DNA from: Candidatus Bathyarchaeota archaeon
Lineage (GTDB): Archaea > Thermoproteota > Bathyarchaeia > 40CM-2-53-6
Direction of reading: 5' to 3'
Assembly (NCBI GenBank): GCA_005881695.1
Contig: VBBT01000104.1
Coordinates: forward strand, 14,941-78,940
DNA length: 64,000 nucleotides
This document shows positions 8,484-59,335 of this stretch, piece by piece. The notes beneath the pieces are model-generated. The model saw only the letters and a list, made by a program, of their open reading frames with translations. It ran no database searches and had not been told where the DNA came from. The stretch's first letter is position 1; each line of letters starts with the position of its first letter. The translations under genes were made by a program, and so were the position numbers.

Positions 8484-8505
8484 GCTCCAAGCCTTCCTAG
8501 GGGTT

Positions 8506-28539: not shown

Positions 28540-29475
28540 TTGTCCATGATTACATTCGAGAGAACTGGAAAACGATTTGGCGATCTTGACGCTGTCAAAG
28601 ACTTCTCCATTACGATCAAGGATGGAGAGATTCTAGGACTTCTCGGTCCGAACGGTGCTGGAAAGACCACTCTGATGCTTATGATGGGAACGGTATACCG
28701 CCCCACCAGCGGGACGATAACAGTCAACGGCTTTGACGTTGTAAAGCAACCTAACGAAGTTAGGAGACTGATCGGAATCGCTTTCCAGGATCCACGGGTG
28801 GACGGTATTCTGAGCGGGTTCGAGGTGTTGAACTGGCACCTCAAAATGACCACGACCTTCGACAAAGACGAGCGCCGACGTCGTGTGGAAGAGGTCCTGA
28901 AAGCTCTCGACCTCTGGGAGGCACGCAAGAAGCGGACCTGGCTGATGAGTGGAGGTATGAAAAAGAAGGTTGAGGATGCGAAGATACTGGTTCAGCGGCC
29001 GAGCATAGCGGTCTTCGACGAACCCACCGCCTTCCTCGACGTCCCGAGCAGATTGCTGGTCTGGAAGATGATCCGGCAGCTGAGGGACGAGGGATCGACC
29101 GTCATCGTTGCCACGAACATGATGGACGAGGCTGAACGTCTCTCCGAGAGAGTTGCAATAGTCAACAAGGGCAAGCTGGTTGCGAGTGAAACCCCGGAAC
29201 AATTGAAGGGAACCGTAAAGGGCGGAGAAGTGCTAGAGCTTACCGTGAACGATGGGTCCGAATTCAGACCGGACATGTTGACCAAGTACCCAGAGGTCCA
29301 TGATGTCAAGAAACAGGACAACAAGATCCTGGTCTTCCTCAACTCAGGCACACTTCTTCTTCCCAAGATAGTCGACACCCTGAGCACTCAAGGGTTCAAG
29401 ATCGAAAGCGTCAAACTGAAGGAGGTCAGTCTGGAAGATGTCTTCCTCACCTACACCGGCCAACGACTCGAGTAA
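28540..29475 (+). CDS. ABC transporter ATP-binding protein
   Basis: Walker A GPNGAGKTT, signature LSGGMKKK, Walker B IAVFDEPT. Confidence 0.85.
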   Translation: MSMITFERTGKRFGDLDAVKDFSITIKDGEILGLLGPNGAGKTTLMLMMGTVYRPTSGTITVNGFDVVKQPNEVRRLIGIAFQDPRVDGILSGFEVLNWHLKMTTTFDKDERRRRVEEVLKALDLWEARKKRTWLMSGGMKKKVEDAKILVQRPSIAVFDEPTAFLDVPSRLLVWKMIRQLRDEGSTVIVATNMMDEAERLSERVAIVNKGKLVASETPEQLKGTVKGGEVLELTVNDGSEFRPDMLTKYPEVHDVKKQDNKILVFLNSGTLLLPKIVDTLSTQGFKIESVKLKEVSLEDVFLTYTGQRLE

Positions 29476-30250
29476 GACCACAGTAGTCGCAGAATCGCCC
29501 CGGCATCTCATCCTTCAGATGGCTCTCAGAGATGTATCGGTCCTGTTCAGGACCCCATGGATCATCATAACCCGAGCTCTTTCCTTCATCATACAACTCT
29601 TTGTCTTTGCCTTCCTCATTAGTGGACTCATCCATATTCCAGGGCTCAATTTCTTCGAGTACTACGCTGTTGGGAGCGTAGTAGCGACGATCGCTTCCAT
29701 CTCGTTCGTCATCGGCTACGACATCTTCGAAGAAGCAGAAGAGGGAGTACTCGATTATCTGCTAACGCTTCCAATCGCAAGACGGCAGTTTATCGTTGGA
29801 CGAGCGCTTGGCGGGGCTATGAGAGCCATAATCTACACCATACCAATGTTTGTCATCGTCGCCTTTCTCTGGGGGTTCAATCAGCCGCTCTCGATCCTCA
29901 CAGCTCTCGTATCGCTCTTCCTCCTAGCCTTCGGTGTTACTGGCATGTCGATAACCGTGGCCGTGAGCGTGAAGAGCGCTAACAGATTTGACGTGGTTCT
30001 CGCTCTCCTCGAGCTCGCTGTGTCAAGGGGAAGCACGGCTCTCTACCCAATCGCTTTCATGCCGGTCTATGTCTCGTTGTTCGCGCCTTTCTCGCCGGTT
30101 TCGTTTGCCGCTGACACTGCACGCAATTCTCTTGTCGGGTTCACTCTGGACCTTCCCGCGATCGCGGGGCTAGTAGCGTTCGTCGTAATTTTCCTCGGGT
30201 TGGGCGCTGCGTTCTATTTCCGCCGTCTAGAAGGAGGAATCTACGGTTGA
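29438..30250 (+). CDS. ABC-2 type transporter permease
   Basis: Six hydrophobic segments downstream of the ATPase. The true start may be an internal Met near 29519. Confidence 0.6.
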   Translation: MSSSPTPANDSSKTTVVAESPRHLILQMALRDVSVLFRTPWIIITRALSFIIQLFVFAFLISGLIHIPGLNFFEYYAVGSVVATIASISFVIGYDIFEEAEEGVLDYLLTLPIARRQFIVGRALGGAMRAIIYTIPMFVIVAFLWGFNQPLSILTALVSLFLLAFGVTGMSITVAVSVKSANRFDVVLALLELAVSRGSTALYPIAFMPVYVSLFAPFSPVSFAADTARNSLVGFTLDLPAIAGLVAFVVIFLGLGAAFYFRRLEGGIYG

Positions 30251-31014
30251 GCAATACGCGACTCATCCCGCTGATCATCGAGCGAGACGTTCGGATCCTC
30301 TTCTCCGACGCGTTTCTTGTCGCGATAATGTTCGCAAACTTTGCGATCGACCTCTTTGTGACAGCCGCGACCTTCGGCCGGCTCGTTACCGGCCAGGGCG
30401 CGAACTACTTCCTCTTCATCGCGCCCGGTTCGAATCTCATAACGGCGATGGTTGCCGCTTTCCAGTCAGGCAGAGATGTGTGGCGCGAGAAGTACATCAA
30501 AGACCTGACCTCGTACCTTCTGACCCTTCCGGTGCAGAGGCCGGTGCTCGCCTTCTCAAGGGTTCTAGGCGGTGTTGTGAGGAGCGTGATCGCAACTTTT
30601 CCAGGGACCCTTGTCATATGCTACCTCTACGGGATTCTACTGACCCCGAAAATTTTCGTAGCATACTTGATAGTCGGCCTATTCTCATTGGGAATAGTCG
30701 GCCTCTCTATGGCTATTTCCGCCTTTTCTTCGAGCATAGAAATGTGGGTCACTGTCAGAAGCGCCATCCAGCTCTACCTATCCTTTCTCAGCGCCCTATT
30801 CTACCCAGTGAGCGTGTTTCCCACCTTTCTAGCACCGATAGTTTCATCAAACCCTATGACATGGGCTATTCAGGCATTCCGGCAACTGTCGCCAATTTCT
30901 TTCCCACAAGTCCCCGCTGGCGATTCCCTTGGGTCGATACTAATTCTTGCCGGACCCTCACTCACCTTTGCCTTACTCGGAACCATCTGCTACATCTGGT
31001 ACTCGAAACTCTAG
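30247..31014 (+). CDS. ABC-2 type transporter permease (second subunit)
   Basis: Hydrophobic 255-aa ORF with a 4-nt overlap onto the preceding permease. Confidence 0.6.
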   Translation: MSNTRLIPLIIERDVRILFSDAFLVAIMFANFAIDLFVTAATFGRLVTGQGANYFLFIAPGSNLITAMVAAFQSGRDVWREKYIKDLTSYLLTLPVQRPVLAFSRVLGGVVRSVIATFPGTLVICYLYGILLTPKIFVAYLIVGLFSLGIVGLSMAISAFSSSIEMWVTVRSAIQLYLSFLSALFYPVSVFPTFLAPIVSSNPMTWAIQAFRQLSPISFPQVPAGDSLGSILILAGPSLTFALLGTICYIWYSKL

Positions 31015-31080: not shown

Positions 31081-31623
31081 TTAGGGGTTCACGTTAATTT
31101 TCCCATTCTGCATGAACACATGGATCGGACAGGAGATGTAACAGTAGACCGTAAACGAGCCTAATTGATTAGCGGTAAACGTCACATCACTACACTTGCC
31201 GGGACCCAGCGCAAATCCGCTGAAGTAGCGCTGTATCGCAAACCCATGAGACTGAATTGTATCATTGTTTATGACATGAATCGTAACGGTTCTCCCCATG
31301 GTAACATTCATTATAGGCCAAGAGCCGCTTTGGAACTTGCTACCGTTGAACCCGACATTCATCCCTTCGTTAGCCATGACGACGACAAAGTAGGTAGAGC
31401 TTGCCGGCACGCTCGCGGGTCGGGCCCAACAGTTGGTTGTCCCGAGACCGAAGAAATGAAACTTATACGCCGCAGCGAAAAACCCGGTGACTGCCACGAC
31501 GATGAGTACGATCACAAGCACCCGTCGCAAAAGTCTTGTTCGCGGGAGTTCTTCCCCGCTTGAGCTCCCAGCTAGCTTTCCGTTACTACTAGTCTCTGAG
31601 TGGACCGGCAAGGTAAGTTGCAT
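31081..31623 (-). CDS. Membrane-anchored blue copper (amicyanin/plastocyanin-like cupredoxin) protein
   Basis: N-terminal TM helix, then a cupredoxin domain. Ligand pattern: ...INNDTIQSHGFAI... and YCYISCPIHVFMQNGKINV. Compare amicyanin YHCTPHPFMRGKVVV, with ligands His, Cys-x2-His-x2-Met. A paralog sits at 38968..39372. Confidence 0.6.
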   Translation of the reverse strand: MQLTLPVHSETSSNGKLAGSSSGEELPRTRLLRRVLVIVLIVVAVTGFFAAAYKFHFFGLGTTNCWARPASVPASSTYFVVVMANEGMNVGFNGSKFQSGSWPIMNVTMGRTVTIHVINNDTIQSHGFAIQRYFSGFALGPGKCSDVTFTANQLGSFTVYCYISCPIHVFMQNGKINVNP

Positions 31624-31800
31624 GGAAACCTAACTACGCTACGAATATGGGAATGTACAGACTGGCGTCCAATGATTAAGAAAGCTATGGCTCAAACTGC
31701 GAACAAGAAACCAGTTAATCCCGCACTCAAAGGATATTCTTTGTCCTGTTCGTAACTTGAGCCAAAAACCCTTAGAACACTCCAGTCGATACATCTGTTC

Positions 31801-32607
31801 ATGCTGGGATTCGCTGAGAGTTTCCTCCCGTGGACTGCATCGACGCTGATTCCCGCGTTTGTAGGGTTACTCCTTATCGTGTTGGTAGGAATGAAATTAC
31901 AGGCAAGATACGTTGCCGCGTTTGCTTTCGGGATTTTGTTCTGGTTTTTCGTGGACACGATAACCGGGGCAGCAAGCCTCGATGTCAACTCGGGTTTCTC
32001 CGGAGGCCTAGGTCAACTTGCAATGATAGGGCTCTTTGTTATCGGCCTGCTCTTCTTCTTTTCAATTGATCGGAATCGAAATATCTTCTCGCCTGAGTTA
32101 GCAATTGGAAAATATGGTTTGGCGATACCCTTGCTAGTTGCGACGGCATTAGGAGTGCACGGGCTCGGCGAGGGCGCAGCCTTCGGGGGAACAGCTGCGC
32201 TGACAACAAGCACGTCCCTTCTCGACACATTCGGCGGCGTTTCCGGCGGAGTAGCGTACGTTCTACACAAGGCACTTGAACCTATGATAATAGGCGCTTG
32301 CTATTGCGCATACTCTATCCAACACGCTAAGACTACTACAGTTCGCCTGAGAGACCTTGCAATTCTGAGCATAATCTTCACGATTCCCTCGCTCATCGGC
32401 GCTGCCAGCGGCTATTACCTAACCTACGACAGCAGCTACTTCTACGCCCTGGGCACCGGAACAGCAATCTATGCCGCGGTGAGGCTCTTTGGACCGATGT
32501 TCAACAAGGCGAACCCTGCAAGCTCGAAGGAATCGATGACGATGGCGGTGCTCATAACCCTTGGACTCCTAACAATCTATTTCGCTGCCTTATTCCATTC
32601 AGGCTAA
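31801..32607 (+). CDS. ZIP-family (ZupT-like) metal cation transporter
   Basis: 8 TM helices; HGLGEGAAFGG and LHKALEP motifs resemble the ZIP TM4/TM5 H-x-x-x-EG signatures. Confidence 0.4.
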   Translation: MLGFAESFLPWTASTLIPAFVGLLLIVLVGMKLQARYVAAFAFGILFWFFVDTITGAASLDVNSGFSGGLGQLAMIGLFVIGLLFFFSIDRNRNIFSPELAIGKYGLAIPLLVATALGVHGLGEGAAFGGTAALTTSTSLLDTFGGVSGGVAYVLHKALEPMIIGACYCAYSIQHAKTTTVRLRDLAILSIIFTIPSLIGAASGYYLTYDSSYFYALGTGTAIYAAVRLFGPMFNKANPASSKESMTMAVLITLGLLTIYFAALFHSG

Positions 32608-32737
32608 TGTCAAGCCGCCATCGCCTTTCTCTCGTCGATTGAGAGCGGCGTGAGTTCGATGGAGGTGTCGGGTTTCAAGGCTCTCCGGAGATCTGAGGCT
32701 CTGATCTCGCTGGTTACCTCTGGACCTTTCGTCGACT

Positions 32738-33124
32738 CTATCGGACCACGAGGAGCCTGACGGTTTTCAGCTTCTTCTCTTTCTGGAAGGCACTAGTCAT
32801 CGAAGCGACCTTCCTCCCTTCCCCCTCTAGGAGAAAGAGTTCGAAGCAATTGTTTTGGCCCATCTTATTGTGAATATGGGTTCGCACAATGTCATCATAG
32901 GCATGTTTCAACCTAGTGATTGGCTCTTCATTCGACTCATCGTGTGTAACTACGAGGATTGCAGCTACTCGGCCGATGAGTGACGCTTTCTCTCTTGAGT
33001 CAGATAGTAGGAGACGTATTGCGGCTCTGACTACGTCAGATCTCCCTGCGTATCCTTGGGATTCCTGAATCGCTGTCATCGAATCGACCAGTTCGTTGGG
33101 TAACGAGACGCTAACGATGGGCAT
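32738..33124 (-). CDS. nikR: Nickel-responsive transcriptional regulator NikR
   Basis: Ribbon-helix-helix N-terminus VSVSLPNELVDSMTAIQESQGYAGRSDVVRAAIRLL plus a C-terminal metal-binding domain with H-x-...-H-I-H-...-C (VTHDES...RTHIHNKMGQNNC); 128 aa. Confidence 0.8.
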   Translation of the reverse strand: MPIVSVSLPNELVDSMTAIQESQGYAGRSDVVRAAIRLLLSDSREKASLIGRVAAILVVTHDESNEEPITRLKHAYDDIVRTHIHNKMGQNNCFELFLLEGEGRKVASMTSAFQKEKKLKTVRLLVVR

Positions 33125-33218
33125 GTGTCTGTGCCATAATAATTTCCAGCTGACTCCTTATATTAGGATTATTAAAATCCGGAAAATACTTAATAATTCC
33201 ATCTCAATCTCGCGTAAC

Positions 33219-34085
33219 GTGATCCCTCTTCTCCCAGAATGGATCGTTCTCTTGCTTGGCTCTCTGGGTCTCGGAATGCTCCACGGGGTCATTCCGGACG
33301 AACACACTTGGCCAATCACTTTCAGCTATTCAGTGGGATCAGCTACAGGGAGAGGAGGAATGCTCTCGGGAACGTTCTTCGCCTCAGCTTTTACACTCCA
33401 ACGCGCAATTATGGCTCAGCTCGTCTACTTCGCCCTCGCTAGTTATCTCGCCTTTGACGAGGGCTTGAACGCGCTTGTCTACGTGGCGGTCGGGATCGCG
33501 ATGTCCCTTGCGGGGTACTTGATATTGTCTGGGAAATTGCCGTCTTGGCATCCCCTTGCTCGATTCCTGCGCACTCATGCTAGAACACATTACGACGAGA
33601 AAGGCATCTCAAGACGAGTTCCCACACACTGGTGTGTAATCCATGGATTCATCGCGGGCTTCGGTGTCGATACAGGCCTCTTCACCACTTTCATCTACTT
33701 GGTCGCTGTTCCAGCGATGCCAGCAGCGTATCTTGGATTCGCACCTGGAGCGGCATTCGGCTTTGGCACACTAATCGTGCTGCTTGCGATTGGTTCAGTG
33801 TTCGGCGGTGTCCTCCAGATCGCGAAGAAGTGGGGTCCGGAGCGAGTCCAGCTCTTCGGCACAAGAGCCGGGGCACGCAGCCTATTTTACGGCGGGATAA
33901 TATTCATCATCGCGGGAATACTCTTCCGAACCGGTATACAAGACACCATTCCGCTGGATTTTGGAAATCTGATTGTCTTAGCGTTTATGATCGGGGTAAT
34001 CGTTCCGGTAATGATCGTCACCTGGAGAGAAGTCAAAACGATCCCTGCGCCTGAAGCATTGACTCATATCGCCAGATCTTCCTGA
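33219..34085 (+). CDS. NicO/RcnA-like nickel/cobalt transporter family membrane protein
   Basis: LHGVIPDEH in TM1 resembles the NiCoT H-x4-D-H signature. It is divergently adjacent to nikR. The proposed start is GTG 33219, because the annotated upstream part of the ORF is AT-rich and promoter-like. Confidence 0.45.
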   Translation: MIPLLPEWIVLLLGSLGLGMLHGVIPDEHTWPITFSYSVGSATGRGGMLSGTFFASAFTLQRAIMAQLVYFALASYLAFDEGLNALVYVAVGIAMSLAGYLILSGKLPSWHPLARFLRTHARTHYDEKGISRRVPTHWCVIHGFIAGFGVDTGLFTTFIYLVAVPAMPAAYLGFAPGAAFGFGTLIVLLAIGSVFGGVLQIAKKWGPERVQLFGTRAGARSLFYGGIIFIIAGILFRTGIQDTIPLDFGNLIVLAFMIGVIVPVMIVTWREVKTIPAPEALTHIARSS

Positions 34086-34380
34086 CCCTGCACGGGCACG
34101 TTTACCCCATCACTATCGGATAAGTTGGGGCGGGAGCGGGATTTGGATACCAGTTTACTGGTACACATAAACGGCTCATGGGCAATCCCTCCCAAGAGTT
34201 CACACACAGTGAGCCACTCTAATTCCAATAATTAACGTTGAACAATGAAACTTTCCGTGAGGTGGGTTTCCAGCCGGACGCAGGTTTCAAGGGATTCAGA
34301 CGCAACACTTTTACTTTTGTAAGGCACAGCGCTTAAGTGGCGCTTTCGAAGCAGGTCACGTGCAGTCTCTTGGAAACTGA

Positions 34381-35137
34381 GAAGTGCTCCTATTGTGGGG
34401 CGTCCGTCAAGAAGGAGAATCTGGGAGGACATGTTGAAAGAGTTCACCCCAAACGGTCTAGGTCGTTCGAGGCCAGGCCTAAGACGGTAAGTAAATCTAT
34501 CAAGACTGGTTCCTCCTTTCGTACCCATCGAAAAAGAAACATCGCGATTCTATCCTTGGTGCTGTTGACAGTTATCGGGATTGCCGTTCTCGCCTTTCCA
34601 GCGCAGAATATGAATATGCCAGGAACAAATCCAGGTCCAGCCTCCCCTGGGTCTATTGAACAGTTCAGTTATTTGAACCAGCAGGTGAGTCGTTGTTTGT
34701 GGGGTGCAAACATGGGAGACGAAATGGGCTACACGAATTGGATTAACGGGTTGGCAGACGATACTTACCTTCAGGGAGCCTGCTGTAACCCTATGGTCGC
34801 AACGGACTACCAGAATCAAATTTCCGAACTTTCGAACTATACGTCTTTGTCTTCGCTGATTGCTAAAGACCCGTATAACATCCCATCTCAGGTTGCAAAG
34901 GCTGATATTGCTGGGGGAAAACTGATTCTCACTAGTGACCAGCAGTCCGTCCTCGCAAATGCCGCAACCTTGTCAAAGGAGAATTGGTGTTGTTGCCAGT
35001 GTTGGAGCTGGTATCAGCACGAAGGACTCGGCAAGATTTTGATTGTCAACTACGGATACTCTGCACAACAGGTCGCTCGTGTCATTGACCTCGAGGCGTG
35101 CTGTGGTACCGGTACCGGCCCTATGAGGATGAATTGA
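34381..35137 (+). CDS. Membrane-tethered protein: N-terminal C2H2-like zinc finger, basic linker, one TM helix, Cys-rich extracytoplasmic domain
   Basis: ETEKCSYCGASVKKENLGGHVERVHPKRS...FRTHRKRNIAILSLVLLTVIGIAV aligns closely with the N-terminus of the 37256..37876 protein. The extracytoplasmic part has CC, CCCQC and CC clusters. The start is proposed at TTG 34381 by analogy with the paralog; the ORF track starts at 34337. Confidence 0.5.
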
Positions 35138-35402
35138 GATGGGCTTGGTGGCTCAATCTATCTCATCCATCTTACCTTTCCCATCGCTCTCCCCTCTGGA
35201 GAATCTGTGACAAGCGGAATCCCTGGCGAAGAAGCTGATAATGCTGTAAGGATACGCCAGTTTCGTCTGACAACATCCTTTGAAGGAAAGTACTCTCCTC
35301 TGCTGTCCACTTCGCCCGTACTGATAATATGGTACGCGGAGCCTAAGCTATTTTCGATGTTAAACTAAGGCCGTGGAGAACTGATTCCGTCGACCCGATA
35401 CT

Positions 35403-35711
35403 TCAGCAGGATCCATTCATGTTGTATTGCTGCATCATCGCCTGGCACTGTGCCATATCATATGACCCCATCATGTTCGCGCATTGAGACATATCATTCG
35501 AACCCATCATGGATTCGCATTCAGTCATATCAGTGTGATCCATCATCGACTGGCACTGAGCCTGTATAGAGCGTGGATTTCCCATCATGTTACTCATCAT
35601 CCCCCAGCCGGTAGGTGAGTGCATAGCCGCCTGCGCATAGACTACCGCACATACAGCAAATAGGGTTACTGAGATGGCGACAATAACTGCTAACCTGCGT
35701 CTTTCTCCCAT
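35403..35711 (-). CDS. Secreted methionine-rich repeat protein (putative Cu(I)-binding, CopM/PcoE-like)
   Basis: Signal/anchor helix, then repeats C-x-SMMGSNDMSQC / ANMMGSYDMAQC / QAMMQQYNM. These are M-x-x-M / MM motifs; 102 aa. Confidence 0.5.
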   Translation of the reverse strand: MGERRRLAVIVAISVTLFAVCAVVYAQAAMHSPTGWGMMSNMMGNPRSIQAQCQSMMDHTDMTECESMMGSNDMSQCANMMGSYDMAQCQAMMQQYNMNGSC

Positions 35712-35882
35712 TCCTTAGGTCACATCCGCGTCTTTCCACACTGAGACGGTCACAGGACATAGTTAGCCCTTTCCGCATCAAAAGAGGAAAGATCTCATGC
35801 CTACAGACGGTAATATCGTCCAGTGGAAATTAGTAATCGACTGACTTTCCCTTTGTTCCCTTATCGGGGCCAAACCTAGGCG

Positions 35883-36161
35883 CTAGCTCGTTGTTCTTCT
35901 CAGTGCGTATTTTCTGAGAAAGTGGGTGTAGGTCTCCTCGCTGCAGACGAATGGAATGTCCGGCCGCCCTTCGATCTTGACCTCAGCGTCAATTACCACA
36001 GTCGGGACCACCGTCACCCCGTACTTCTTCGCCAGGTCCATGTTCTCGGACACGTCGTGGATTGTCAGCTGGCAACCGTTGCATTTGCCTGCCTCAATCT
36101 CGTTCACGAACTCGACGCAGAGTGGGCATCCCGCGGAGAATACTTCGATTTTGTGCGGCAT
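35883..36161 (-). CDS. Small thioredoxin-fold protein (CxxC)
   Basis: VFSAGCPLCVEF redox motif plus a second CNGC; 92 aa. Typical of the Thioredoxin_3 / small glutaredoxin-like family. Confidence 0.55.
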   Translation of the reverse strand: MPHKIEVFSAGCPLCVEFVNEIEAGKCNGCQLTIHDVSENMDLAKKYGVTVVPTVVIDAEVKIEGRPDIPFVCSEETYTHFLRKYALRRTTS

Positions 36162-36236
36162 AGACCTTACCCTCTCTGGAGGAGATATTAATACTTCAAC
36201 GTTCCAAGCCTATGTCCCAATTCAAGCTGTACACCT

Positions 36237-36971
36237 ATGGCATTTGGAGTATCTTCTTCATTAGCATGCGTGACCTGCGGTTGTAGAGAAACCTCATGTG
36301 AAGGCTGCCATACCCCCTCGGACTGCTCCAACTGTGCGTCATGCTGCTGCAATACCTCTCATCAGTCATGGAGACAAGCGAGAATCAGGAATGGAATCAA
36401 GATCGAATACATCAGCTCGGGATGGATGACGGTTGAGGTTTTGGGGTCGATTGGATTTGGAGTGGTTGCCGGAAGTTTCGCCCTATTGGCGTTCGGGGGC
36501 GATAGTCTGATTGAACTGATTTCTGGCATCGCAGTCTTGACAAACTTGCGAAAGGACTCCAGTAGCAATACCGGTAATGGAATGTACGGCAAGAGGACGG
36601 AACAATTCACGAGCGCGCTGCTCTTCGCTCTTATTCCCGTCATTGGGTTAGGCATGGTTTATTCGTACTTTTCGGGGTTGAAGCCAGAGGGATCGGTACT
36701 GGGGATCGCGATAGCTATCGGAGCGGTTATCGTGATGCCTTATCTGTACGTTGAGAAGAAAAAGATAGGGAGAGAGACTCGGTCGCTGCCTCTCTCGATT
36801 GATGCTATAGAGTCGGTGACCTGCATTTTCATGGCCGTAGCTCTCCTCGGTGGCCTTCTTGCAGAATATTTCTTGGGGATCTGGTGGGCTGACTATCTAG
36901 CGACTGGTGTCATACTCGCATTCGTGGCGAAAGAAGCTGTTGAATCATACGGCGAAATCCGTGAAGAATGA
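36237..36971 (+). CDS. Cation diffusion facilitator-like metal efflux protein with Cys-rich N-terminus
   Basis: N-terminal CVTCGCRETSCEGCHTPSDCSNCASCCC, then TM helices with FALLAFGGDSLIELISGIAV, which resembles the CDF motif ALLADAGHMLTD. 244 aa, shorter than typical CDF proteins. Confidence 0.5.
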   Translation: MAFGVSSSLACVTCGCRETSCEGCHTPSDCSNCASCCCNTSHQSWRQARIRNGIKIEYISSGWMTVEVLGSIGFGVVAGSFALLAFGGDSLIELISGIAVLTNLRKDSSSNTGNGMYGKRTEQFTSALLFALIPVIGLGMVYSYFSGLKPEGSVLGIAIAIGAVIVMPYLYVEKKKIGRETRSLPLSIDAIESVTCIFMAVALLGGLLAEYFLGIWWADYLATGVILAFVAKEAVESYGEIREE

Positions 36972-36998
36972 AGAGCCGCCTTTCTCTCTTCAGGTAAA

Positions 36999-37179
36999 TG
37001 GTGCGGGGGGTGGGATTCGAACCCACGAAGGCCTACGCCACGGGATAGCACACCCGCGCTTCGCGAGGGCATTGATCGTTCCTAAGCCCTCGCGGAATTG
37101 GGTCTTGAGTGTAGCGCGCGCATGCCAAGCGCGACCCGCCCATTTAGTCAGATGTTTGACCTGACTCTGGTACCCCCGC
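36999..37179 (-). tRNA. tRNA gene with a large intron or introns (anticodon unresolved)
   Basis: Minus-strand sense 3' end: gtgggTTCGAATcccac-cccccgc-a-CCA, giving T-arm, 7-nt acceptor strand, discriminator and CCA. The complementary 5' acceptor strand gcggggg is 181 nt upstream (rc of 37173..37179). The roughly 105 extra nt include a perfect 9-bp hairpin, cgcgagggc...gccctcgcg, consistent with one or more introns. Confidence 0.5.
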
Positions 37180-37255
37180 TAGTTAGATGCGGGCTAGTCA
37201 TCTCAAATATGCCTTCGGGAAAGGTCATCGGCAAGTGGTTTAGGAACAACAGGCG

Positions 37256-37876
37256 CTAAGTTGCGAGCGTCATCACAATCTGCTGCGGCTTGTCCCTAAG
37301 CACTACGTCTTGTGTGGCCGAAGGTAGGACTTGCCCGTCGACGCTGACGGATGAGACGGGATGCCCGTTGATGCTGCTTCCATCGGAGGGTTGTCCCCAG
37401 ATGGCCAGGAACTGGTGCAGTGTAAAGTCTCTAACTGTATTCGATTCAACGTGGATAAGCCCGCTAGTGTCGTGGGTGTGTATTGGTGCCAAGCCGCTCA
37501 AACCATATTGATCTAGAGAATGGTCCTTCCATAGACTTGGATCAATCCCGATTTGGGCGGGGACCTGCACTGGGCTACCGTTCAAGGTTATGGAGAGTTG
37601 CGGATGGATATGCATGCGCAGAGTGTTGGCTGCAACAAACTCTACAGCAACAATTGAAACTCCCATAACAGCAAGCACAATGAGTGAAAGAAGTAGCATG
37701 TTTTTCTTCTTGTGGCTTCGGAAGGCTGAAGGGGCTCTGGCCAGGGGCACCGTCTTGGGTTGAACGAGGGACCCGGCTCGTCTTGGGTGCACCTTTGCGT
37801 AGTGAGACTTCAGATTCTCTTTTTTAACTGGGCTCCCGCAGACGGGACATTTCTCAGATTCCAATAACAGTATCAT
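37256..37876 (-). CDS. Membrane-tethered protein: N-terminal C2H2-like zinc finger, TM helix, extracytoplasmic HTHD-motif domain
   Basis: MILLLESEKCPVCGSPVKKENLKSHYAKVHPRR (C-x2-C-x11-H-x4-H), a basic linker, a TM helix, then ...LAPIHTHDTSGLIHVESNTVRDFTLHQFLAIWGQ. It is a paralog of 34381..35137 at the N-terminus and of 38091..38702 in the extracytoplasmic domain. Confidence 0.5.
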   Translation of the reverse strand: MILLLESEKCPVCGSPVKKENLKSHYAKVHPRRAGSLVQPKTVPLARAPSAFRSHKKKNMLLLSLIVLAVMGVSIVAVEFVAANTLRMHIHPQLSITLNGSPVQVPAQIGIDPSLWKDHSLDQYGLSGLAPIHTHDTSGLIHVESNTVRDFTLHQFLAIWGQPSDGSSINGHPVSSVSVDGQVLPSATQDVVLRDKPQQIVMTLAT

Positions 37877-38090
37877 ACCACAGCTGAAAGCTAAGAACTT
37901 GTCCCTATTGGAGTCATTATCCGCCGTTAGTCAGAGAGAGAATTTGTCTTGACCACCTTGAGGCTTCCTTCACAGCTAAGACGGTTCTCTTGATCGTTCG
38001 CGCCACGTCCGGTAAGTTAGAAGGGAATGCAGCTAGGCAACCTGCAGTCGCGCTGAGCAGACGGAAAGTATTATTGGACGCAGACATTTC

Positions 38091-38702
38091 TTGGATGCCT
38101 TCGGAGGCGGGCGCTTGGCGAAGACGAGCAGGAAGCAGAGGATTTTACAAGATGTCCAGAGAAAGCGCCGCCAGAGAGCAGTAGTAACAGCGATCATAGC
38201 GGCAATCCTTATCGCTGTGATAGTCGGAGGCATTTATGCGCTCATCCTACCCAAAAACGAGCAGACTATACTCATACCAGCTAATATCGGGTTTGACAGC
38301 AGTTGTGCAAGGCCGCTGCACACCCATGACGTCTCCGGAACAATTCATGTTGAAACAAATGTAAATCAGAACTATTCAATCGCCGATTTCTTTCTGATCT
38401 GGGGAAAAGTTTTCAATAGCAGCGGAATATTTCAGTCGAACCAGCCCTTACCTTCCTACTTGAACTGCATAACAGGTACTCTGCTTTACCACTCCCATCC
38501 AACACTGACCATCATATACAAGAAAGACTTCCCAACTCAGATCAACATGACCGTCAACGGCACACCGGTGTCACCTAACCCAAATCCGAACCTTCAACTG
38601 CCCCGAAACGCTGCAACCCCGAGTGCACCCTGCACCCCAGGACCATGCGAGGCTTTCAGTATCGTCATAACGTATGGTCCAGGCATACCAGCTAGCTTCT
38701 AG
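38091..38702 (+). CDS. Membrane-anchored HTHD-motif domain protein (paralog of 37256..37876, lacking the zinc finger)
   Basis: Basic N-terminus, a TM helix, ARPLHTHDVSGTIHVETNVNQNYSIADFFLIWGK, and a C-terminal Pro/Cys-rich tail PCTPGPCEAF. Confidence 0.5.
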   Translation: MDAFGGGRLAKTSRKQRILQDVQRKRRQRAVVTAIIAAILIAVIVGGIYALILPKNEQTILIPANIGFDSSCARPLHTHDVSGTIHVETNVNQNYSIADFFLIWGKVFNSSGIFQSNQPLPSYLNCITGTLLYHSHPTLTIIYKKDFPTQINMTVNGTPVSPNPNPNLQLPRNAATPSAPCTPGPCEAFSIVITYGPGIPASF

Positions 38703-38967
38703 TAAAAGCCGCAGCGGCTTGAAAGGAGAGTGCCTGCTCCAGCGTATCTCCTCCGAATCCGTTCAGAGGACGTCTCCTCGCGTCTTTCGGGGGTAACTTT
38801 TTGCCCAAACCACTTGAATGCTCCGAATTGCGCTTACTGAATTCCCACACTGAATGACACGGACCATATGTGCCAAGACTCTTTTAGTTGGTTTCCTGTA
38901 CGGTAAATCCGCCTGGCTACTCCACCCCAAGACAGGTTTCGAGAGCAAACTATTGAGAACTAGCGAG

Positions 38968-39372
38968 ATGGTCGTAATCGCGCTCGTTGCCGCATCTCTC
39001 GCAGCAGGCGGAGTGTTCGCAGTAGTACTCAGCCCTCCCCCGTCTCCTTGCTCGGGAGCGACAGGAGCGATTCGGTCCTTTACAATTATGGTAGATTTGA
39101 CAGGTTACAACGGGAGCCAATCTCACAACGGTTCTTGGCCTGTCGTTTCGGTTCAGCGTTGTGACAATGTGGTTTTCACAGTTATCAATAACGACACCCA
39201 ATCTCATGGGTTCGCAGTGACCTATTACTCCAACGCCGGTTTGGAGCTTGTAGGAGGTGCACGCCAGACGCTGAAGTTTCAAGCTACAAGGACTGGAGAG
39301 TTCCAGATATATTGCACGATCAAGTGCTCGGTTCACTACCTAATGCAAAATGGTCTTCTAAACGTAACCTAA
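38968..39372 (+). CDS. Membrane-anchored blue copper (amicyanin/plastocyanin-like) protein, paralog of 31081..31623
   Basis: INNDTQSHGFAV and YCTIKCSVHYLMQNGLLNV match the same His / Cys-x2-His-x2-Met pattern as the paralog. The start is proposed at ATG 38968, just before the TM helix. Confidence 0.6.
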   Translation: MVVIALVAASLAAGGVFAVVLSPPPSPCSGATGAIRSFTIMVDLTGYNGSQSHNGSWPVVSVQRCDNVVFTVINNDTQSHGFAVTYYSNAGLELVGGARQTLKFQATRTGEFQIYCTIKCSVHYLMQNGLLNVT

Positions 39373-39395
39373 GCATCCCTGGCGAACAAACAATC

Positions 39396-40916
39396 ATGCG
39401 ACTATCATACGCGATCGCGCCAATCCTGATCCTCATTTTCTTCTCCACACCAGCGTCCTACGCAACTCCCCTCACTCGTGCAGTTAGCCAGCCAGATATT
39501 GTTCAATCCAGTCCTCAATCCTACGTAACTTTCATGCAGAAACCTCTAGATTCGAGCCCCAGCCCATGGGTCCTTTATCCAACAGACACGGTCGTGTGGG
39601 TCGCAGGAATATCCTCAGGAACGCCGCCGACCTCTCAGATCCGGGAATACTTCATAGTGAATGGAACTTCGAAACCCGTAGCCAATCTCCCGAACGTAAT
39701 AGTCAGCTCCTTGGTTGCTGATTCTCTGGGCCGAGTTTGGTTCACCGACAATTCGACACTTGCATACTACGACAGCCAACGCCTGACCGTGAATAAGACG
39801 ATAACTTTTCCTAACCAAAACCTAGAGTACTTGGCGCTAGATCATCAGGAGAGAATATGGATGACAGTGTTGGGACCTAATGGCGCCAGCAACGTCGTCA
39901 TGTTCGATCCCACTAATAGTTTGAACCGGACCTATCTGGTTCCGACCACCAACGCGTTCATTCAAGGAATAACCGCAGCTCCAGACAATACAGTATGGTT
40001 CGCAGAAGCCGGGTCGATGAAGCTTGGTCATCTTGCCTGTGACAGCTGCGACATCACCGAGTTTCCTTCACCTTCGTCTCTCAATCTAGCAGCGCTTTCA
40101 CAGGTGGCGGTTGATAGATCAGGCAACATTTGGTTCACCGATCATGCGGGCGACAACCAATTTGGAGTGTTTGACTCACATGCCAATACTTGGAAGATTT
40201 TCCCTATCGGTTATTGTCCAGATGCTTGTGTTTCCGGCCTTCCCAACGCCATTTTTGTTGACGCATACAACAAGATCTGGTTCTCGGAACACATTGCTGG
40301 TAGAGTAGGACGCTATGACCCCTCTACTGGTGTCTTGACAGAATATGTTGTCTCTCTCACTCCCAACGCTTTCCCATTGATCTGGTGGGCAAGCCCTGGG
40401 CCCAACAATCTCGTATGGTTTGTTGCAAACGGACTCGGCGAGGTAGGCTACATCAACGCGAGCCTACCCCTTCCGCTGACCCTTACTGGACCTTCAGGGG
40501 AGGTTGCAATCCAAAAAGGAACCACATTGAACATTTCTGTCATCGTAGACTCTCAAGCCCTACAAACCCTGTCCTTCGGCGTTTCTCCGTTGACTCAAGA
40601 CCAAGAGTCTTCGAACTCTCCTGCCCAATTGTACGGGTCTGGGCCTTCAGACATCGGGCCGAACAATAATCCTCAGGCGGTCAACATCGGCATTTCTGCG
40701 GCCTGGAGTGCGATCTCTGGGGCCCGGTACGTAGCTCTCACCGCCACTGAGGGCAACGTCGCAGTAACCATTCATGTCAAAGTAGTAGTTGTTGAGAGTT
40801 CGGTGCCTTTTGTCGCTTTAGGTTTCTCATCCTCGATCGTTCTTGGAGGTTTCGCAATCTACTTGCGAAGGCCTAGGAAACCTAAGCTCCAGCCCTTGAA
40901 AAAAGTCAGAAGGTAG
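39396..40916 (+). CDS. Secreted beta-propeller protein with WF(T/S)(D/E) blade repeats and a C-terminal TM anchor with basic tail
   Basis: Signal peptide MRLSYAIAPILILIFFSTPASYA. At least six repeats: RVWFTDNS, RIWMTVLG, TVWFAEAG, NIWFTDHAG, KIWFSEHIAG, LVWFVANG, reminiscent of Vgb-lyase / NHL-like propeller blades. The C-terminus VPFVALGFSSSIVLGGFAIYLRRPRKPK resembles archaeosortase-type sorting signals. Confidence 0.5.
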   Translation: MRLSYAIAPILILIFFSTPASYATPLTRAVSQPDIVQSSPQSYVTFMQKPLDSSPSPWVLYPTDTVVWVAGISSGTPPTSQIREYFIVNGTSKPVANLPNVIVSSLVADSLGRVWFTDNSTLAYYDSQRLTVNKTITFPNQNLEYLALDHQERIWMTVLGPNGASNVVMFDPTNSLNRTYLVPTTNAFIQGITAAPDNTVWFAEAGSMKLGHLACDSCDITEFPSPSSLNLAALSQVAVDRSGNIWFTDHAGDNQFGVFDSHANTWKIFPIGYCPDACVSGLPNAIFVDAYNKIWFSEHIAGRVGRYDPSTGVLTEYVVSLTPNAFPLIWWASPGPNNLVWFVANGLGEVGYINASLPLPLTLTGPSGEVAIQKGTTLNISVIVDSQALQTLSFGVSPLTQDQESSNSPAQLYGSGPSDIGPNNNPQAVNIGISAAWSAISGARYVALTATEGNVAVTIHVKVVVVESSVPFVALGFSSSIVLGGFAIYLRRPRKPKLQPLKKVRR

Positions 40917-40924
40917 ATTCTGGG

Positions 40925-41233
40925 TCAAAGAAGTTCTATTTCGATAAAAACATCGTCAGGCGCTCTTATCCTCATCAATCTCTTCAAAAATCGTTCATTC
41001 GGGTCCACGTCAATGAGGCGTTTGTGAATCCTCATCTCCCACTTGTCGAACGTGTGTGTTCCTTGTCCTGCTGGCGATTTTCTTGATGGGACGATGAGCT
41101 TCTTGGTTGGCAGGGGTATGGGTCCTTTCAGCTTGACGCCTGTCTTGTCAGCTATGTCTCGGATCTCTGTGCAAATCGTATTGATGTCCTGAGGGTCAGT
41201 GCTGGAGAGGCGAATTCTAGCTTTGGAAACCAA
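40925..41233 (-). CDS. rps10: 30S ribosomal protein S10 (uS10)
   Basis: [46 protein letters not shown]...; 102 aa. Confidence 0.9.
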
Positions 41234-41638
41234 CCCAAGACACCTTCATTGTCCACCTTTGTAGCGAAAGGTTAGGGCGGGTCCGGTGCTGTTAAAAACC
41301 TTGGTGTAAACTCGCGGAGACCCGAGAAACCGAAAAGATTGCGATAGATGTGAGAGTATCCTGCCAGTGAGTCCCGGTTGGCGACAGGTTGAGGGCGGGC
41401 TTACTTGACGCCTAGTCTAAGTTTCGAGGCCCGCATACATCTTTGCTTCTCGCTGTACGCGAAGCGGGCTAGGATGAGGAGTGTTCCCAGAGATAGAAGC
41501 ACCAGGTGCATATGCCGCGGTAACTTTTCTTCCCGAGAAAAACCTATCGGTTAAGCATGCGAGCGAGACCAACAATTCATGGACCCTTGTTTTGGGTCCG
41601 GGGTTACCCTTTCCGGGAAGGAGACGAATTGCGTGAGG

Positions 41639-42937
41639 TTAGCCTTTCGTGATGATCTCTTTGACTACGCCGACGCCGACGGTGCTGCCCATGTCCCGGA
41701 TAGCAAACCTCCCGAGTTCTGGAATGTCCGAGAACGCTTCCAAGACCATGTTGTGCAAGGGCTTCATCTTCACTAGGGCACTGTCGCCGACCTTGAGGAA
41801 ACTAGGCTTCTCTTCAACCACCTGACCTGTTCGTGGGTCGATTTTCTTGATAAGTTCCTCGAAGGTCACTCCGACCGTCGCTGTGTGCGCGTGCAACACT
41901 GGGGTGTATCCTGCGGCGATGGCAGTTGGGTGGTAGATGATAATGATCTGTCCAATGAACTCTTTCGCGATCGTCGGTGGCTTGTCCGTGTGGCCCATGA
42001 CCTCTCCCCGTCCGATCTCGTTCTTTGCAACGCCTCTGATGTTGAAGCCGATATTGTCTCCAGGCTCAGCCTTCGCCATCCGTACGTGATGGGTCTCGAT
42101 CGATTTTACCTCACCGAGCTTTCCGGAGGGATTGAAGATGACCTTGTCACCATCTTTCACAACACCCGTCTCGACACGTCCCACCGGGACGGTGCCAACA
42201 CCAGTAATGGTGTACACGTCCTGAATCGGAACGCGAAGAGGCTTGTCCAAGGGCTTCGGTGGCGGAATGAAATCGTTGAGCGCATCGTATACTGTAACTC
42301 CCTTGTACCACGGTGTGTTCGTACTCTTCTTCGATAGGTTGTCACCAAGCCATCCGCTGGTCGGGACGAACGGGACCTTCGAAACGTCAAAGCCCACAGT
42401 CTTCAGCAATCCTTCCAGCTCTTTCCGGCACTCCTTGTACCGTTCCTCAGAATATTTGACCGTCTGATCATCCATCTTGTTGATGGCTACGACCAAGTTC
42501 TTCACTCCGAGAGTTCTTGCAAGGTAGGCGTGTTCTCTCGCTTGTCCTCCAGGTCCCACGGCGACTTCGAATTCGCCCTTTTTACCGGAGACGACAAGGA
42601 TTGCGACGTCTGCCTGGCTTGCACCGGTGATCATGTTCTTGATGAAGTCCCGGTGTCCGGGCGCGTCGATGATCGTGTAGAAATTCTTCGGTGTCTCAAA
42701 CTTTTGGAAAGAGAGATCGATCGTGACTCCTCTCTCCCTCTCTTCCTTGATCGTGTCTAGGACCCAGGCGTACTTGAAAGTATCACCTGCTCCTGTCTTT
42801 TCAGATTCTTTCGCGTACTGCTCGATTGTCTTCTGGTCAATGTATCCTGCGTCGAACAGAAGGTGACCTGTCAGCGTACTCTTTCCATGGTCAACATGAC
42901 CCATCACTATCAGGTTCAGATGGGGCTTTGCGGACAT
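41639..42937 (-). CDS. tuf: Translation elongation factor 1-alpha (aEF-1alpha)
   Basis: GHVDHGKSTL, DAPGH, NKMD, and full-length similarity to archaeal EF-1alpha; 432 aa. Confidence 0.95.
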   Translation of the reverse strand: MSAKPHLNLIVMGHVDHGKSTLTGHLLFDAGYIDQKTIEQYAKESEKTGAGDTFKYAWVLDTIKEERERGVTIDLSFQKFETPKNFYTIIDAPGHRDFIKNMITGASQADVAILVVSGKKGEFEVAVGPGGQAREHAYLARTLGVKNLVVAINKMDDQTVKYSEERYKECRKELEGLLKTVGFDVSKVPFVPTSGWLGDNLSKKSTNTPWYKGVTVYDALNDFIPPPKPLDKPLRVPIQDVYTITGVGTVPVGRVETGVVKDGDKVIFNPSGKLGEVKSIETHHVRMAKAEPGDNIGFNIRGVAKNEIGRGEVMGHTDKPPTIAKEFIGQIIIIYHPTAIAAGYTPVLHAHTATVGVTFEELIKKIDPRTGQVVEEKPSFLKVGDSALVKMKPLHNMVLEAFSDIPELGRFAIRDMGSTVGVGVVKEIITKG

Positions 42938-43008: not shown

Positions 43009-43122
43009 GAGAGCCTGACACTTCTCATACCCGGATACCCACAGCCAAACTACTTTTCTGTGCTGACTGGTTCAACAGTTGAAGGCGTACTTGTCGCTTT
43101 CCACGGATCCGCCGCGTACAAT

Positions 43123-44259
43123 TTTTTAGGAGAGAAAGATGTGAAGACCGCTATGAGCAAGGGTGCAACCAGGATTCGTGTCGGCATCATCGGTGCCAAC
43201 CCGGATCGCGGATGGGCGGCGCAAGCACACATTCCTGCTTTGAAGTCGCTCTCGGATGACTTCGAGATCACTGCGCTGTCCACCAGCCGACGCGAATCTG
43301 CCGACGCCGCCAGCAAGCTCTTTGGAGTGCCTGTCGCGTTCGACAACCATCAAGACCTCGTGAACAGCGCTGCCGTTGACGTCGTCGCCGTCACCGTGAA
43401 AGTGCCGTATCACCTCGAACTAGCGTCTGCAGCGCTTGTCGCCGGCAAGGCTGTGTACTGCGAATGGCCGCTCGGTAACGGCTTGAGTGAGGCGCGGATC
43501 TTGGCCGCACTGGCGAAGAAGAAGGGCGTCCTAGCGGTGGTGGGACTGCAGGCCCGTTCTGCGCCGTCGGTGGCTTACACGCATGACCTGATCAGGCAAG
43601 GTTACGTCGGTGAGGTGCTCTCCACAACGTTGATCGGTTCAGGAATGGGCTGGGGACCAACGGTAGAGCCGTACAACGCCTACCTCAACGACAAGAAAAA
43701 CGGCGCGACGATGCTCTCGATCGCGCTCGGCCACGCGGCGGACGCGCTGTGTCACTGCCTCGGCGAAGTGCGAGAACTCTCGGCCACCATGACAGTGCGC
43801 CGAAAGTCCTTCACGATCACGCAGACGGGCGAAAGCAAGCCCATGACCGCGGAGGATCAGGTGTGCGTCACCGGACTGCTCGAAGGCGGGGCCGCGCTCT
43901 CGATCCACTATCGCGGCGGCGTTTCGCGCGGCACCAACCTGCTCTGGGAGATCAACGGCACCGAGGGCGATCTGCAGCTCACCGCCGCAGGCGGCCAAGC
44001 CCAGATCTTCGAGATGACGGTACACGGTGGCAAGGGCGCACAGTCCTCCCTCGAGGTCCTGCCCGTGCCGGAGCAGTATCGGTGGTCGCCGCCGCAAGGC
44101 CCTTCCACCAACGTCGCCCAAGCGTACGCGCGTTTCGCCCGCGACTATCGAGAGGGGACGCATTTCTGCCCCACGTTCGACGACGCGGTCACGCGCCATC
44201 GCATGCTGAACGCGATCGAGACGGCCGCGGCAACCGGTCAGCGTCAAACGCTCGGTTGA
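43123..44259 (+). CDS. Gfo/Idh/MocA-family oxidoreductase on a GC-rich segment
   Basis: IRVGIIGANPDRGWAAQAHIPAL NAD-binding N-terminus. Local GC is about 65-70% against about 50% for the neighbours. Antisense ORFs in the same region are GC artefacts. The ORF track starts at 43060; the Met at 43123 immediately precedes the Rossmann fold. Confidence 0.7.
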   Translation, partial: FLGEKDVKTAMSKGATRIRVGIIGANPDRGWAAQAHIPALKSLSDDFEITALSTSRRESADAASKLFGVPVAFDNHQDLVNSAAVDVVAVTVKVPYHLELASAALVAGKAVYCEWPLGNGLSEARILAALAKKKGVLAVVGLQARSAPSVAYTHDLIRQGYVGEVLSTTLIGSGMGWGPTVEPYNAYLNDKKNGATMLSIALGHAADALCHCLGEVRELSATMTVRRKSFTITQTGESKPMTAEDQVCVTGLLEGGAALSIHYRGGVSRGTNLLWEINGTEGDLQLTAAGGQAQIFEMTVHGGKGAQSSLEVLPVPEQYRWSPPQGPSTNVAQAYARFARDYREGTHFCPTFDDAVTRHRMLNAIETAAATGQRQTLG

Positions 44260-59195: not shown

Positions 59196-59335
59196 TCCCG
59201 GCGCCAACCTAAGAATCAGCTGTGACGAGCATGTTTTCTTCGGTGTGTTTGGTGCATCTCTTTCGGCCCGAGTCTTCGTATTGCTCTCTTGTGAATATAC
59301 TTGTTGAGAGGATTTAGTCCTAGGGTTTTTGAGAA

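Follow-up and report, generated by a model that had tools for sequence, protein, structure and literature searches.

HTHD and Cys-rich membrane-anchored proteins in a bathyarchaeal metal-gene neighbourhood and their possible part in extracytoplasmic copper handling

A 64,000-nucleotide stretch of a soil Bathyarchaeia genome (Candidatus Bathyarchaeota archaeon, GCA_005881695.1, contig VBBT01000104.1, positions 14,941 to 78,940; hereafter the window) contains about 10 kb, at 31081–40916, in which genes for cupredoxins, a metal regulator, a cation exporter and a thioredoxin are interleaved with three single-pass membrane proteins that we refer to as P5, P9 and P10. Public metagenome assemblies at JGI and ENA hold identical contigs, and proteins related to those of the window are recorded as Candidatus Bathyarchaeota or Bathyarchaeia. 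A first-pass annotation had taken these genes for an extracytoplasmic module for the handling or sensing of copper and nickel, raising the question of whether they form one machine and what the membrane proteins contribute to it. The stretch is a mosaic neighbourhood of metal-homeostasis genes and not a single machine. Its conserved unit is a pair of genes, one encoding an ectodomain with a nearly invariant HTHD motif (P9) and the other a Cys-rich ectodomain (P5), found with a thioredoxin-fold protein, a CuA-type cupredoxin and a propeller. With slightly better than even confidence, we read the two ectodomains from their sequences and surroundings as binding copper at the outer face of the membrane and passing or holding it there.

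Architecture and conservation of P5, P9 and P10

The three membrane proteins, initially described as paralogues, are a domain-shuffled set and not one family. P5 and P9 have only their first ~85 residues in common (48 % identity over 83 aa), a segment comprising a C-x2-C-x11-H-x4-H finger, a basic stretch and the transmembrane (TM) helix. P9 and P10 have only the ectodomain in common (32 % identity), and no similarity was found between P5 and P10. The N-terminal C2H2-like finger previously reported for two of the three is indeed present in P5 and P9, with ligand pattern and predicted fold both fitting. Its spacing is the C2H2 consensus minus one residue in the middle spacer, the classical criterion used here being Cys-x2-4-Cys-x12-His-x3-5-His. 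No exception to the four ligands occurs among 32 P9-family sequences, nor in any P5-family sequence that retains its N-terminus; the basic juxtamembrane FRSHRKRN stretch is strictly conserved, and the AlphaFold2 (AF2) model of P9 predicts a beta-beta-alpha finger (strands 7–9 and 16–18, helix 19–29, pLDDT ~80). Profile scores were below the Pfam cutoffs for P5 (18.5 bits on zf-H2C2_5, cutoff 27) and P9 (14.6 bits on zf-Di19, cutoff 27.5), and above the cutoff for a further protein with the same finger module, P0153 (28.8 bits on zf-Di19). In P0153 the finger–TM module is joined to an AhpC/TSA-Redoxin (TlpA/ResA-like) ectodomain, and its gene lies beside VKOR, CtaA, cupredoxin, COX2 and COX1 genes in the assembly that also contains locus L005 (loci from other genomes are cited by such numbers). 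One finger–TM module is found on three different ectodomains; a motif scan of all fetched loci returned no finger–TM paralogues beyond the P5 and P9 families. Because Nitrososphaeria, Patescibacteria and planctomycete-like bacteria have the same ectodomains on a bare TM anchor, and because the finger is also found on a TlpA-like enzyme, we regard the finger as an accessory cytoplasmic module of the anchor. A CxxC...CxxC zinc ribbon placed N-terminal to the TM helix was also seen in other single-pass proteins (L010 16996–17562, minus strand; L038 6122–8077 and 8566–9057), and this combination of zinc ribbon and TM helix is widely used by these archaea, without restriction to metal genes.

The ectodomain of P5 carries eight cysteines (C, CC, CCCxC, C) that are invariant from Bathyarchaeia to Nitrosotalea and Kaiserbacteria. 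It is predicted to be all-helical, with no thioredoxin fold predicted, and none of 33 close relatives of P5 had a Pfam match. In the ~120 aa ectodomain of P9, H89, H91, H142 and E144 are invariant. A beta-grasp-like fold is predicted, with HTHD and IHVE on consecutive predicted strands (132–135 and 140–144). Side chains i and i+2 of a beta-hairpin lie on the same face, and this placement would suit a sheet-borne metal site. Run against 1.84 billion representatives, a profile of the HTHD domain matched 2447 clusters (50 % identity) at E<=1e-3, most of the matches being proteins of 150–220 aa with an N-terminal TM helix. Such a helix was present in 102 of the top 149 representatives and all three His motifs in 105, and in some proteins the domain was repeated in tandem or joined to an FG-GAP, DUF4214 or Redoxin domain. 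The HTHD domain has no Pfam or NCBIfam model, 44 diverse family members included, and sequence searches of the PDB gave no match for P5, P9 or the HTHD profile; neither ectodomain matched a solved fold, and the absence of a recognisable family, noted at first sight, was thus borne out for both. The profile libraries used appear to hold no description of either ectodomain family, of the way they are paired or of their attachment to a C2H2-like anchor. A limited literature search, which included the Nitrososphaera viennensis copper-limitation paper, did not find them either, although this does not prove absence.

Two variants of the HTHD domain were apparent. In P10, the HxHP strand comes after and not before HTHD/IHVE, and BLAST against P9 gives an out-of-order second high-scoring segment pair, suggestive of a circular permutation or partial duplication; P10 occurs in close relatives only and is called at 195 aa in databases. 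A subclade of P9 (L013 7463–10642, L039 4489–7672) has lost the HxH and HTHD histidines, LLTRD replacing HTHD. Its members keep the finger–TM anchor and always adjoin a subtilase (Peptidase_S8 plus PA) in surroundings free of metal genes, and they may represent a functional shift of the domain.

Gene neighbourhoods and proposed function of the pair

The link to copper comes from comparative context, for which reference-genome loci were chosen by P9 and metagenome loci independently by the P5 ectodomain. Of 25 reference-genome loci, which are not phylogenetically independent, 12 had an HTHD gene no more than 10 kb from a P1B-type ATPase; the ATPases counted were P-type ATPases within the fetched flanks that are related to the HMA-bearing pump of Nitrosotalea. 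By a rough genome-size estimate, chance alone would place a Cu-ATPase in a few percent of random 20-kb windows. Reference loci with both genes also hold TRASH or CsoR regulators and DsbA. From the other direction, an HTHD gene was found no more than 3.5 kb from the P5 gene, and often within 500 bp, in 20 of the 25 metagenome loci that extend at least 2.5 kb to both sides. The initial proposal of extracytoplasmic copper handling gains from these neighbourhoods the copper link that supports it.

HTHD genes stand beside Cys-rich genes in three phyla, namely in Nitrosotalea (L020–L023), Kaiserbacteria (L032) and Bathyarchaeia (L010, L037 and the window), and at least five lineages of these phyla repeat the association with Cu-ATPase, TRASH/CsoR and the Cys-rich partner. 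The Nitrosotalea-type order is HTHD, Cys-rich, a 4-TM protein, an Lrp/TRASH regulator and a P-type ATPase with two HMA domains, followed by a second HTHD, DsbA, a Vgb-lyase-like propeller, a rhodanese and a third HTHD. The 4-TM protein (L021 11080–11580, plus strand; 166 aa, roughly four TM helices, CASC motif, no Pfam match) has the Cys-rich gene on one side and the TRASH regulator on the other; it is conserved in all four loci of this type and is not present in the window. In Kaiserbacteria the order is DsbA, Cys-rich, HTHD, DUF302, SHOCT, a CsoR-family repressor, a P-type ATPase with a His-rich N-terminus and a cation diffusion facilitator (CDF), whilst the recurrent orders in Bathyarchaeia are S10-P5-P9-Trx3-propeller-cupredoxin, P5-P9-Trx3-ATPase and ATPase-P5-P9, Trx3 being a small Thioredoxin_3 protein. 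The L010 contig (DASPWZ010000032.1), which carries the P5-P9-propeller-cupredoxin set, was deposited as 'Candidatus Dormiibacterota bacterium'; its archaeal EF-1alpha and S10 are 89–93 % identical to those of the window and it is probably a mis-binned bathyarchaeal contig.

Across 59 metagenome loci, the propeller was present in 35, a cupredoxin in 31, Trx3 in 26, the multi-pass protein TM268 in 15, NikR and CDF in 13 each, the ATPase in 12 and the Met-rich protein in 8. The genes for NikR, its neighbouring permease, CDF and the Met-rich protein were restricted to loci whose P5 has ~72 % or more identity to that of the window, apart from a few loci at 47–57 % that keep NikR and the permease. 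Co-conservation therefore held for the HTHD/Cys-rich pair and failed for these four genes beyond close relatives, and they are best read as lineage-specific additions. Together with the thioredoxin, they are ordinary metal-homeostasis content in a variable chromosomal slot.

How the pair might act can be outlined from these data. P5 and P9 would be type-II membrane proteins with their ectodomains outward, the HTHD domain binding Cu(II)/Cu(I) and the Cys domain binding Cu(I) as thiolates. Their place would be downstream of P1B ATPases that export Cu(I), and they would either hold the exported copper or hand it to extracytoplasmic copper proteins. The likely clients here would be the two CuA-type cupredoxins, each of which is paired with another gene (the propeller or a ZIP-like permease), and Trx3, DsbA and TlpA-like proteins would keep the cysteines of the pair in the right redox state. 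The cytoplasmic finger would have been added in Bathyarchaeia and a few other lineages, where it is shared with a TlpA-like redoxin of the CuA-assembly type, and it more likely docks or orients the proteins than signals. Copper uptake in ammonia oxidisers is not well understood (PMC7785015), and the movement of copper outside the cytoplasmic membrane is poorly understood both in archaea and in monoderm candidate-phyla bacteria. Two ectodomain families beside copper pumps and sensors in Nitrososphaeria, Bathyarchaeia and Patescibacteria would supply small, soluble domains as candidates for the binding, transfer or buffering of copper. With ~2400 sequence clusters of the HTHD domain outside any family model, even a plain result such as Cu(II) binding via HxH/HxE would serve to annotate a large number of proteins.

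The observations beneath this outline are domain architecture, conservation, the lack of a known family and gene neighbourhoods, among them the cox-type surroundings of the TlpA-like redoxin on the finger–TM anchor and the absence of metal genes beside the P9 subclade without the HTHD histidines. Several points weigh against it. Metal binding, the identity of the metal and the direction of transfer are read from context and conserved residues, the AF2 model of P9 has moderate confidence around the His motifs (pLDDT 56–66), and the loci counted are not phylogenetically independent. The window itself contains no Cu-ATPase, nor CopA or a TRASH regulator, and several P9 homologues lie in unrelated contexts (L006/L007, L008, L038). 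The most probable of the alternatives, though an unlikely one, is that the pair performs extracytoplasmic thiol–disulfide chemistry and not copper trafficking, with the His site as a catalytic metal centre and the eight-Cys domain as a disulfide relay, for either the repair of copper-induced mis-oxidation or the re-oxidation of DsbA in lineages lacking DsbB/VKOR. Such a relay would be built on vicinal CC and CCCxC motifs, which are unusual in disulfide relays and typical of metal thiolate sites; moreover, copper exporters and copper sensors are the distant neighbours that recur most consistently, and the window and many Bathyarchaeia loci are without DsbA. Thiol chemistry would, on the other hand, accommodate the position of DsbA next to the pair in Nitrosotalea, Kaiserbacteria and Parcubacteria, that of Trx3 next to P9 in many Bathyarchaeia loci, an HTHD protein fused to a Redoxin/ResA-like domain, the finger–TM anchor on a TlpA-like redoxin next to VKOR, and the known tie between copper and redox homeostasis made by Dsb-like Scs proteins (PMC10907172).

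The finger invites a different explanation, which develops the sensor reading of the first-pass annotation: the finger–TM proteins would be trans-membrane signal transducers whose ectodomain senses copper whilst the finger, with its basic juxtamembrane stretch, binds DNA/RNA or sequesters a regulator in the manner of ToxR or zinc-binding anti-sigma factors. The strict conservation of the finger residues and the FRSHRKRN stretch, the use of one module on three ectodomains, divergent classical C2H2 fingers on 8 of the top 149 HTHD representatives and a homologue with a faint GAGA-finger match all speak for a role of this kind. We nevertheless consider it improbable, and weaker than when proposed, since the bare-TM versions in other phyla need no cytoplasmic output and one cargo of the finger is a TlpA-like enzyme. 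It is also common for unrelated archaeal membrane proteins to have an N-terminal zinc ribbon ahead of one TM helix, and a single C2H2 finger rarely gives specific DNA binding. Similarly doubtful is a broader version in which the finger and basic segment form a signalling or assembly module that couples the copper status sensed by the two ectodomains to DNA/RNA, the Cu-ATPase or Trx3, an archaeal counterpart of ToxR- or anti-sigma-type proteins based on a zinc finger of eukaryote-like kind; if true, the module would also organise a dedicated CuA-assembly line of TlpA-like reductase, HTHD and eight-Cys proteins replacing Sco/PCuAC in these archaea. Slightly less probable again is that the clustering is fortuitous or heterogeneous, the HTHD domain being a general cell-surface or hydrolase-type domain and the window a variable chromosomal region. 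Several HTHD proteins do occur in non-metal contexts or fused to FG-GAP, DUF4214, GSDH or PMT_2, gene orientation in the region alternates, and gene content differs between relatives. A fortuitous cluster is difficult to reconcile with linkage to Cu-ATPase, TRASH/CsoR and the Cys-rich partner across so many lineages, or with a frequency of Cu-ATPases so far from the chance expectation. Copper binding and transfer or retention by the pair remains the reading we prefer.

Other genes of the region and the tRNA-Leu gene

All 13 features named earlier were present at or near their expected positions (Table 1). Since gene orientations alternate across the region, giving at least eight transcription units, it is not one operon. 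A repeat search found no operator-like shared motif, the real repeats being limited to paralogous finger-coding and cupredoxin-coding segments; scans for sigma-70 promoters and terminators were at chance level, sigma-70 models being irrelevant for an archaeon. The slot between the ABC-2 transporter and S10/EF-1alpha is kept in relatives.

Table 1. Features of the metal-gene neighbourhood and its borders, in window positions
Feature	Position	Strand	Description
ABC-2 transporter	28540-31014		Left border of region
CupA	31081..31623	-	Membrane-anchored single-domain cupredoxin, CuA-like ligand set (H...C-x3-C-x2-H-x2-M)
TM268	31801..32607	+	Multi-pass membrane protein, distant ZIP-like candidate, paired with cupredoxin
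NikR	32738..33124	-	Ribbon-helix-helix metal regulator; NikR_C and RHH_1 matches
Permease	33360..34085	+	Multi-pass, divergent from NikR; earlier label 'NicO'; without family match
P5	34337..35137	+	C2H2-like finger 34385-34447; TM helix 34544-34600; predicted helical 8-Cys ectodomain 34613-35134
Met/Cys-rich small exported protein	35403..35711	-	Four C-x2-MM-x3-DM-x2-C repeats
Thioredoxin_3 (Trx3) small CxxC protein	35883..36161	-	Pfam match; without signal peptide
CDF membrane domain	36237..36971	+	11-Cys N-terminal extension; without C-terminal dimerisation domain
tRNA-Leu(CAA)	36999..37179	-	Encoded CCA; three introns: 37143-37153, 37110-37134, 37042-37099
P9	37256..37876	-	C2H2-like finger 37787-37849; TM helix 37631-37699; His-rich HTHD ectodomain 37259-37624
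P10	38091..38702	+	TM anchor and divergent HTHD ectodomain; no finger
CupB	38854..39372	+	Second CuA-like membrane-anchored cupredoxin, directly upstream of propeller
Beta-propeller	39312..40916	+	Secreted, C-terminally anchored, Vgb-lyase family; alternative start 39396
rpS10/EF-1alpha	40925-42937		Right border of region

The original gene list held for NikR, the thioredoxin, the CDF, the propeller, the Met-rich protein and the two cupredoxins, and three of its labels (amicyanin, ZIP and NicO) were not borne out. CupA and CupB are paralogues (46 % identity) that, from their sequences, appear CuA-like and not amicyanin-like or type-1 blue copper proteins: they carry two cysteines in CuA spacing and not the single type-1 Cys, and they have no PF00127 (Copper-bind) match. 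The ligand set H-x34-C-x3-C-x2-H-x2-M is kept in all seven bathyarchaeal homologues. The best matches of the cupredoxins are to CuA domains, those of NosZ and COX2; CupA gives partial matches to the NosZ C-terminal CuA domain and to nitrosocyanin, and an iterative search (jackhmmer) with the cupredoxins reaches true COX2. As with CupB, a cupredoxin is paired with the propeller in L005, L010, L012 and numerous metagenome loci. The propeller, described from the outset as a secreted beta-propeller, matches Vgb_lyase (68.5 bits, 5.5e-19) and has a homologue in the Nitrosotalea copper cluster. A split NosZ-like enzyme formed by the CuA gene and the propeller gene was considered and rejected. The propeller did not match NF052460 or NosZ models even at E 10, and because only H250, H299, E298 and D289 are invariant among nine homologues it lacks a CuZ-like His set, with two invariant histidines against the seven of CuZ.

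TM268 had no Pfam, NCBIfam or PDB match and none to PF02535 even at E 10, which leaves the ZIP label unconfirmed. It is 33 % identical (E 9e-34) to a 272-aa protein of L037 that scores 21.3 bits on Zip (cutoff 35.1), and because of this sub-threshold match a distant relationship to ZIP is possible. TM268 adjoins a cupredoxin in the window, L005, L015 and L037. Both domains expected of NikR were matched (NikR_C, 48.7 bits, 8.7e-13, cutoff 22; RHH_1, 20.6 bits, cutoff 20.5), with H-x-H...C ligand candidates read from the sequence. The adjacent permease, by contrast, had no Pfam (PF03824), NCBIfam or PDB match, so that the sole support for its NicO label is the conserved divergent pairing with NikR, kept in L005 and ~13 metagenome loci; databases call the permease at 241 aa. 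The Cys-rich CDF exporter matches Cation_efflux (42 bits, 1.2e-10, cutoff 26.6) and ends right after the membrane domain with no ZT_dimer match, whereas the CDF of the Kaiserbacteria locus has both domains. Its open reading frame (ORF) opens with an 11-Cys stretch, CVTCGCRETSCEGCHTPSDCSNCASCCC (window 36237-36420), which is omitted from a public call of 181 aa that starts 63 codons later; we prefer the longer ORF because the shorter would truncate TM1. The CxxC thioredoxin matches Thioredoxin_3 (43.8 bits, 2.7e-11, Pfam) and recurs next to P9, before a Cu-ATPase or the propeller, in other lineages. The four repeats of the Met-rich secreted protein were confirmed in the translation; the protein has no family match and is restricted to close relatives.

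The tRNA gene inside the region is likewise real. Default ARAGORN, and Rfam at gathering score, found no tRNA anywhere in the window, and the unspliced sequence scored 22.9 bits in Rfam (gathering score 29) with only the acceptor and T arms seen. Splicing out RNA positions 27-37, 46-70 and 81-138, the presumed introns, gave an 87-nt tRNA-Leu(CAA) in ARAGORN. The 181-nt stretch is 86–87 % conserved in L005 and L010. Changes cluster in two internal stretches, located within proposed introns 2 and 3, and a hairpin with compensatory changes is formed by one of the two stretches. With introns allowed, ARAGORN also reported a tRNA-Pro(GGG) at 59079-59206 (plus strand) and a tRNA-Gly(CCC) at 59999-60112 (minus strand), each with an intron, such that all three tRNA genes seen in the window carry introns.

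The presence of this tRNA had been taken as a hint of acquisition by integration. Acquisition of the region as a genomic island, by integration at this tRNA gene, now seems very improbable and was rejected for the window, even though the gene does lie inside the region and gene content around it varies between relatives. The 3' end of the tRNA is not repeated in the window, its sole other match being the different tRNA at 59999, the ORF list contains no integrase-like ORF, and GC content in the region (0.49–0.53) is that of most of the window. The tRNA, P9, cupredoxin and propeller genes are furthermore found in the slot from ABC-2 to S10 in both L005 and L010, which represent two other genera. 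In L005 (GCA_030157145.1; tRNA at 7025-7205), a 19-nt exact copy of the tRNA-Leu 3' end is found 1.7 kb downstream (8917-8935), so that an amino-acid permease gene (7470-8789) is bracketed; this copy looks like an att-type scar of a small insertion in that genome and not in the window. Outside the region, the 1-kb bin at 43-44 kb has a GC content of 0.61, compared with ~0.52 elsewhere in the window. It coincides with a 399-aa ORF (43060-44259, plus strand) that matches a Gfo/Idh/MocA-type oxidoreductase gene called in L002, and because this gene is missing at that position in L005 it may be a recent acquisition.

Comparison with known copper and redox systems

Likeness to established systems can be found for each part of the pair and its surroundings. 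For the predicted fold of the HTHD domain, the nearest comparison is the DUF4430/transcobalamin beta-domain, a beta-grasp ligand-binding domain (e.g. PDB 3u7z), with which it shares marginal scores, 10 % identity and a Pfam match below threshold, the His motifs being specific to the HTHD family. CupA and CupB have the H-x34-C-x3-C...H-x2-M spacing in common with the CuA domains of COX2 and N2O reductase, but are stand-alone, membrane-anchored proteins in which the spacer from the second Cys to the His is a residue shorter (x2, where the CuA motif H-x34-C-x3-C-x3-H-x2-M and the true COX2 of L034 have x3). The cytoplasmic zinc mini-domain, single TM helix and ectodomain of P5 and P9 follow the same order of parts as ZAS anti-sigma and ToxR-like proteins. 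Their finger is C2H2-like and not HxxxCxxC, however, their ectodomains also occur without the cytoplasmic domain and one cargo of the module is an enzyme; archaea, moreover, are not known to have sigma factors. CopG has a Cys-rich motif with adjacent cysteines (CxCC), and Scs/Dsb-like systems combine DsbA-like proteins with copper tolerance genes, as the HTHD/Cys-rich loci do, but the partner proteins here are unrelated to these in sequence and predicted fold. Scs has been linked with copper and redox homeostasis (PMC10907172).

At the level of gene clusters, the Lrp-type helix-turn-helix (HTH) and TRASH regulator next to an HMA-bearing P-type ATPase in Nitrosotalea matches the canonical archaeal cop arrangement (PMC7830388, PMC3595675), with CopA and CopR/CopT HTH-TRASH regulators as in Sulfolobus and Pyrococcus. 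To that arrangement the loci add HTHD, Cys-rich, DsbA and propeller genes, which were not found in the papers covered by our limited check. The closest functional parallels are PCuAC, Sco, CopC, YcnI and CusF, as well as TlpA, which are also small membrane-anchored or periplasmic domains with conserved His/Met/Cys ligands and are likewise encoded near Cu-ATPases, cupredoxin/oxidase genes and thioredoxin-fold partners. The TlpA-like redoxin on the same anchor sits in a cox cluster. Even so, P5, P9, P10 and the 44 diverse HTHD members gave no match to PCuAC, Sco, CopC, YcnI or CusF profiles, and the predicted folds (beta-grasp-like for P9, all-alpha for P5) and ligand motifs differ from theirs. 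Systems for extracytoplasmic copper homeostasis, or for the assembly of copper centres, are already known as a kind, whilst the two ectodomain families appear undescribed.

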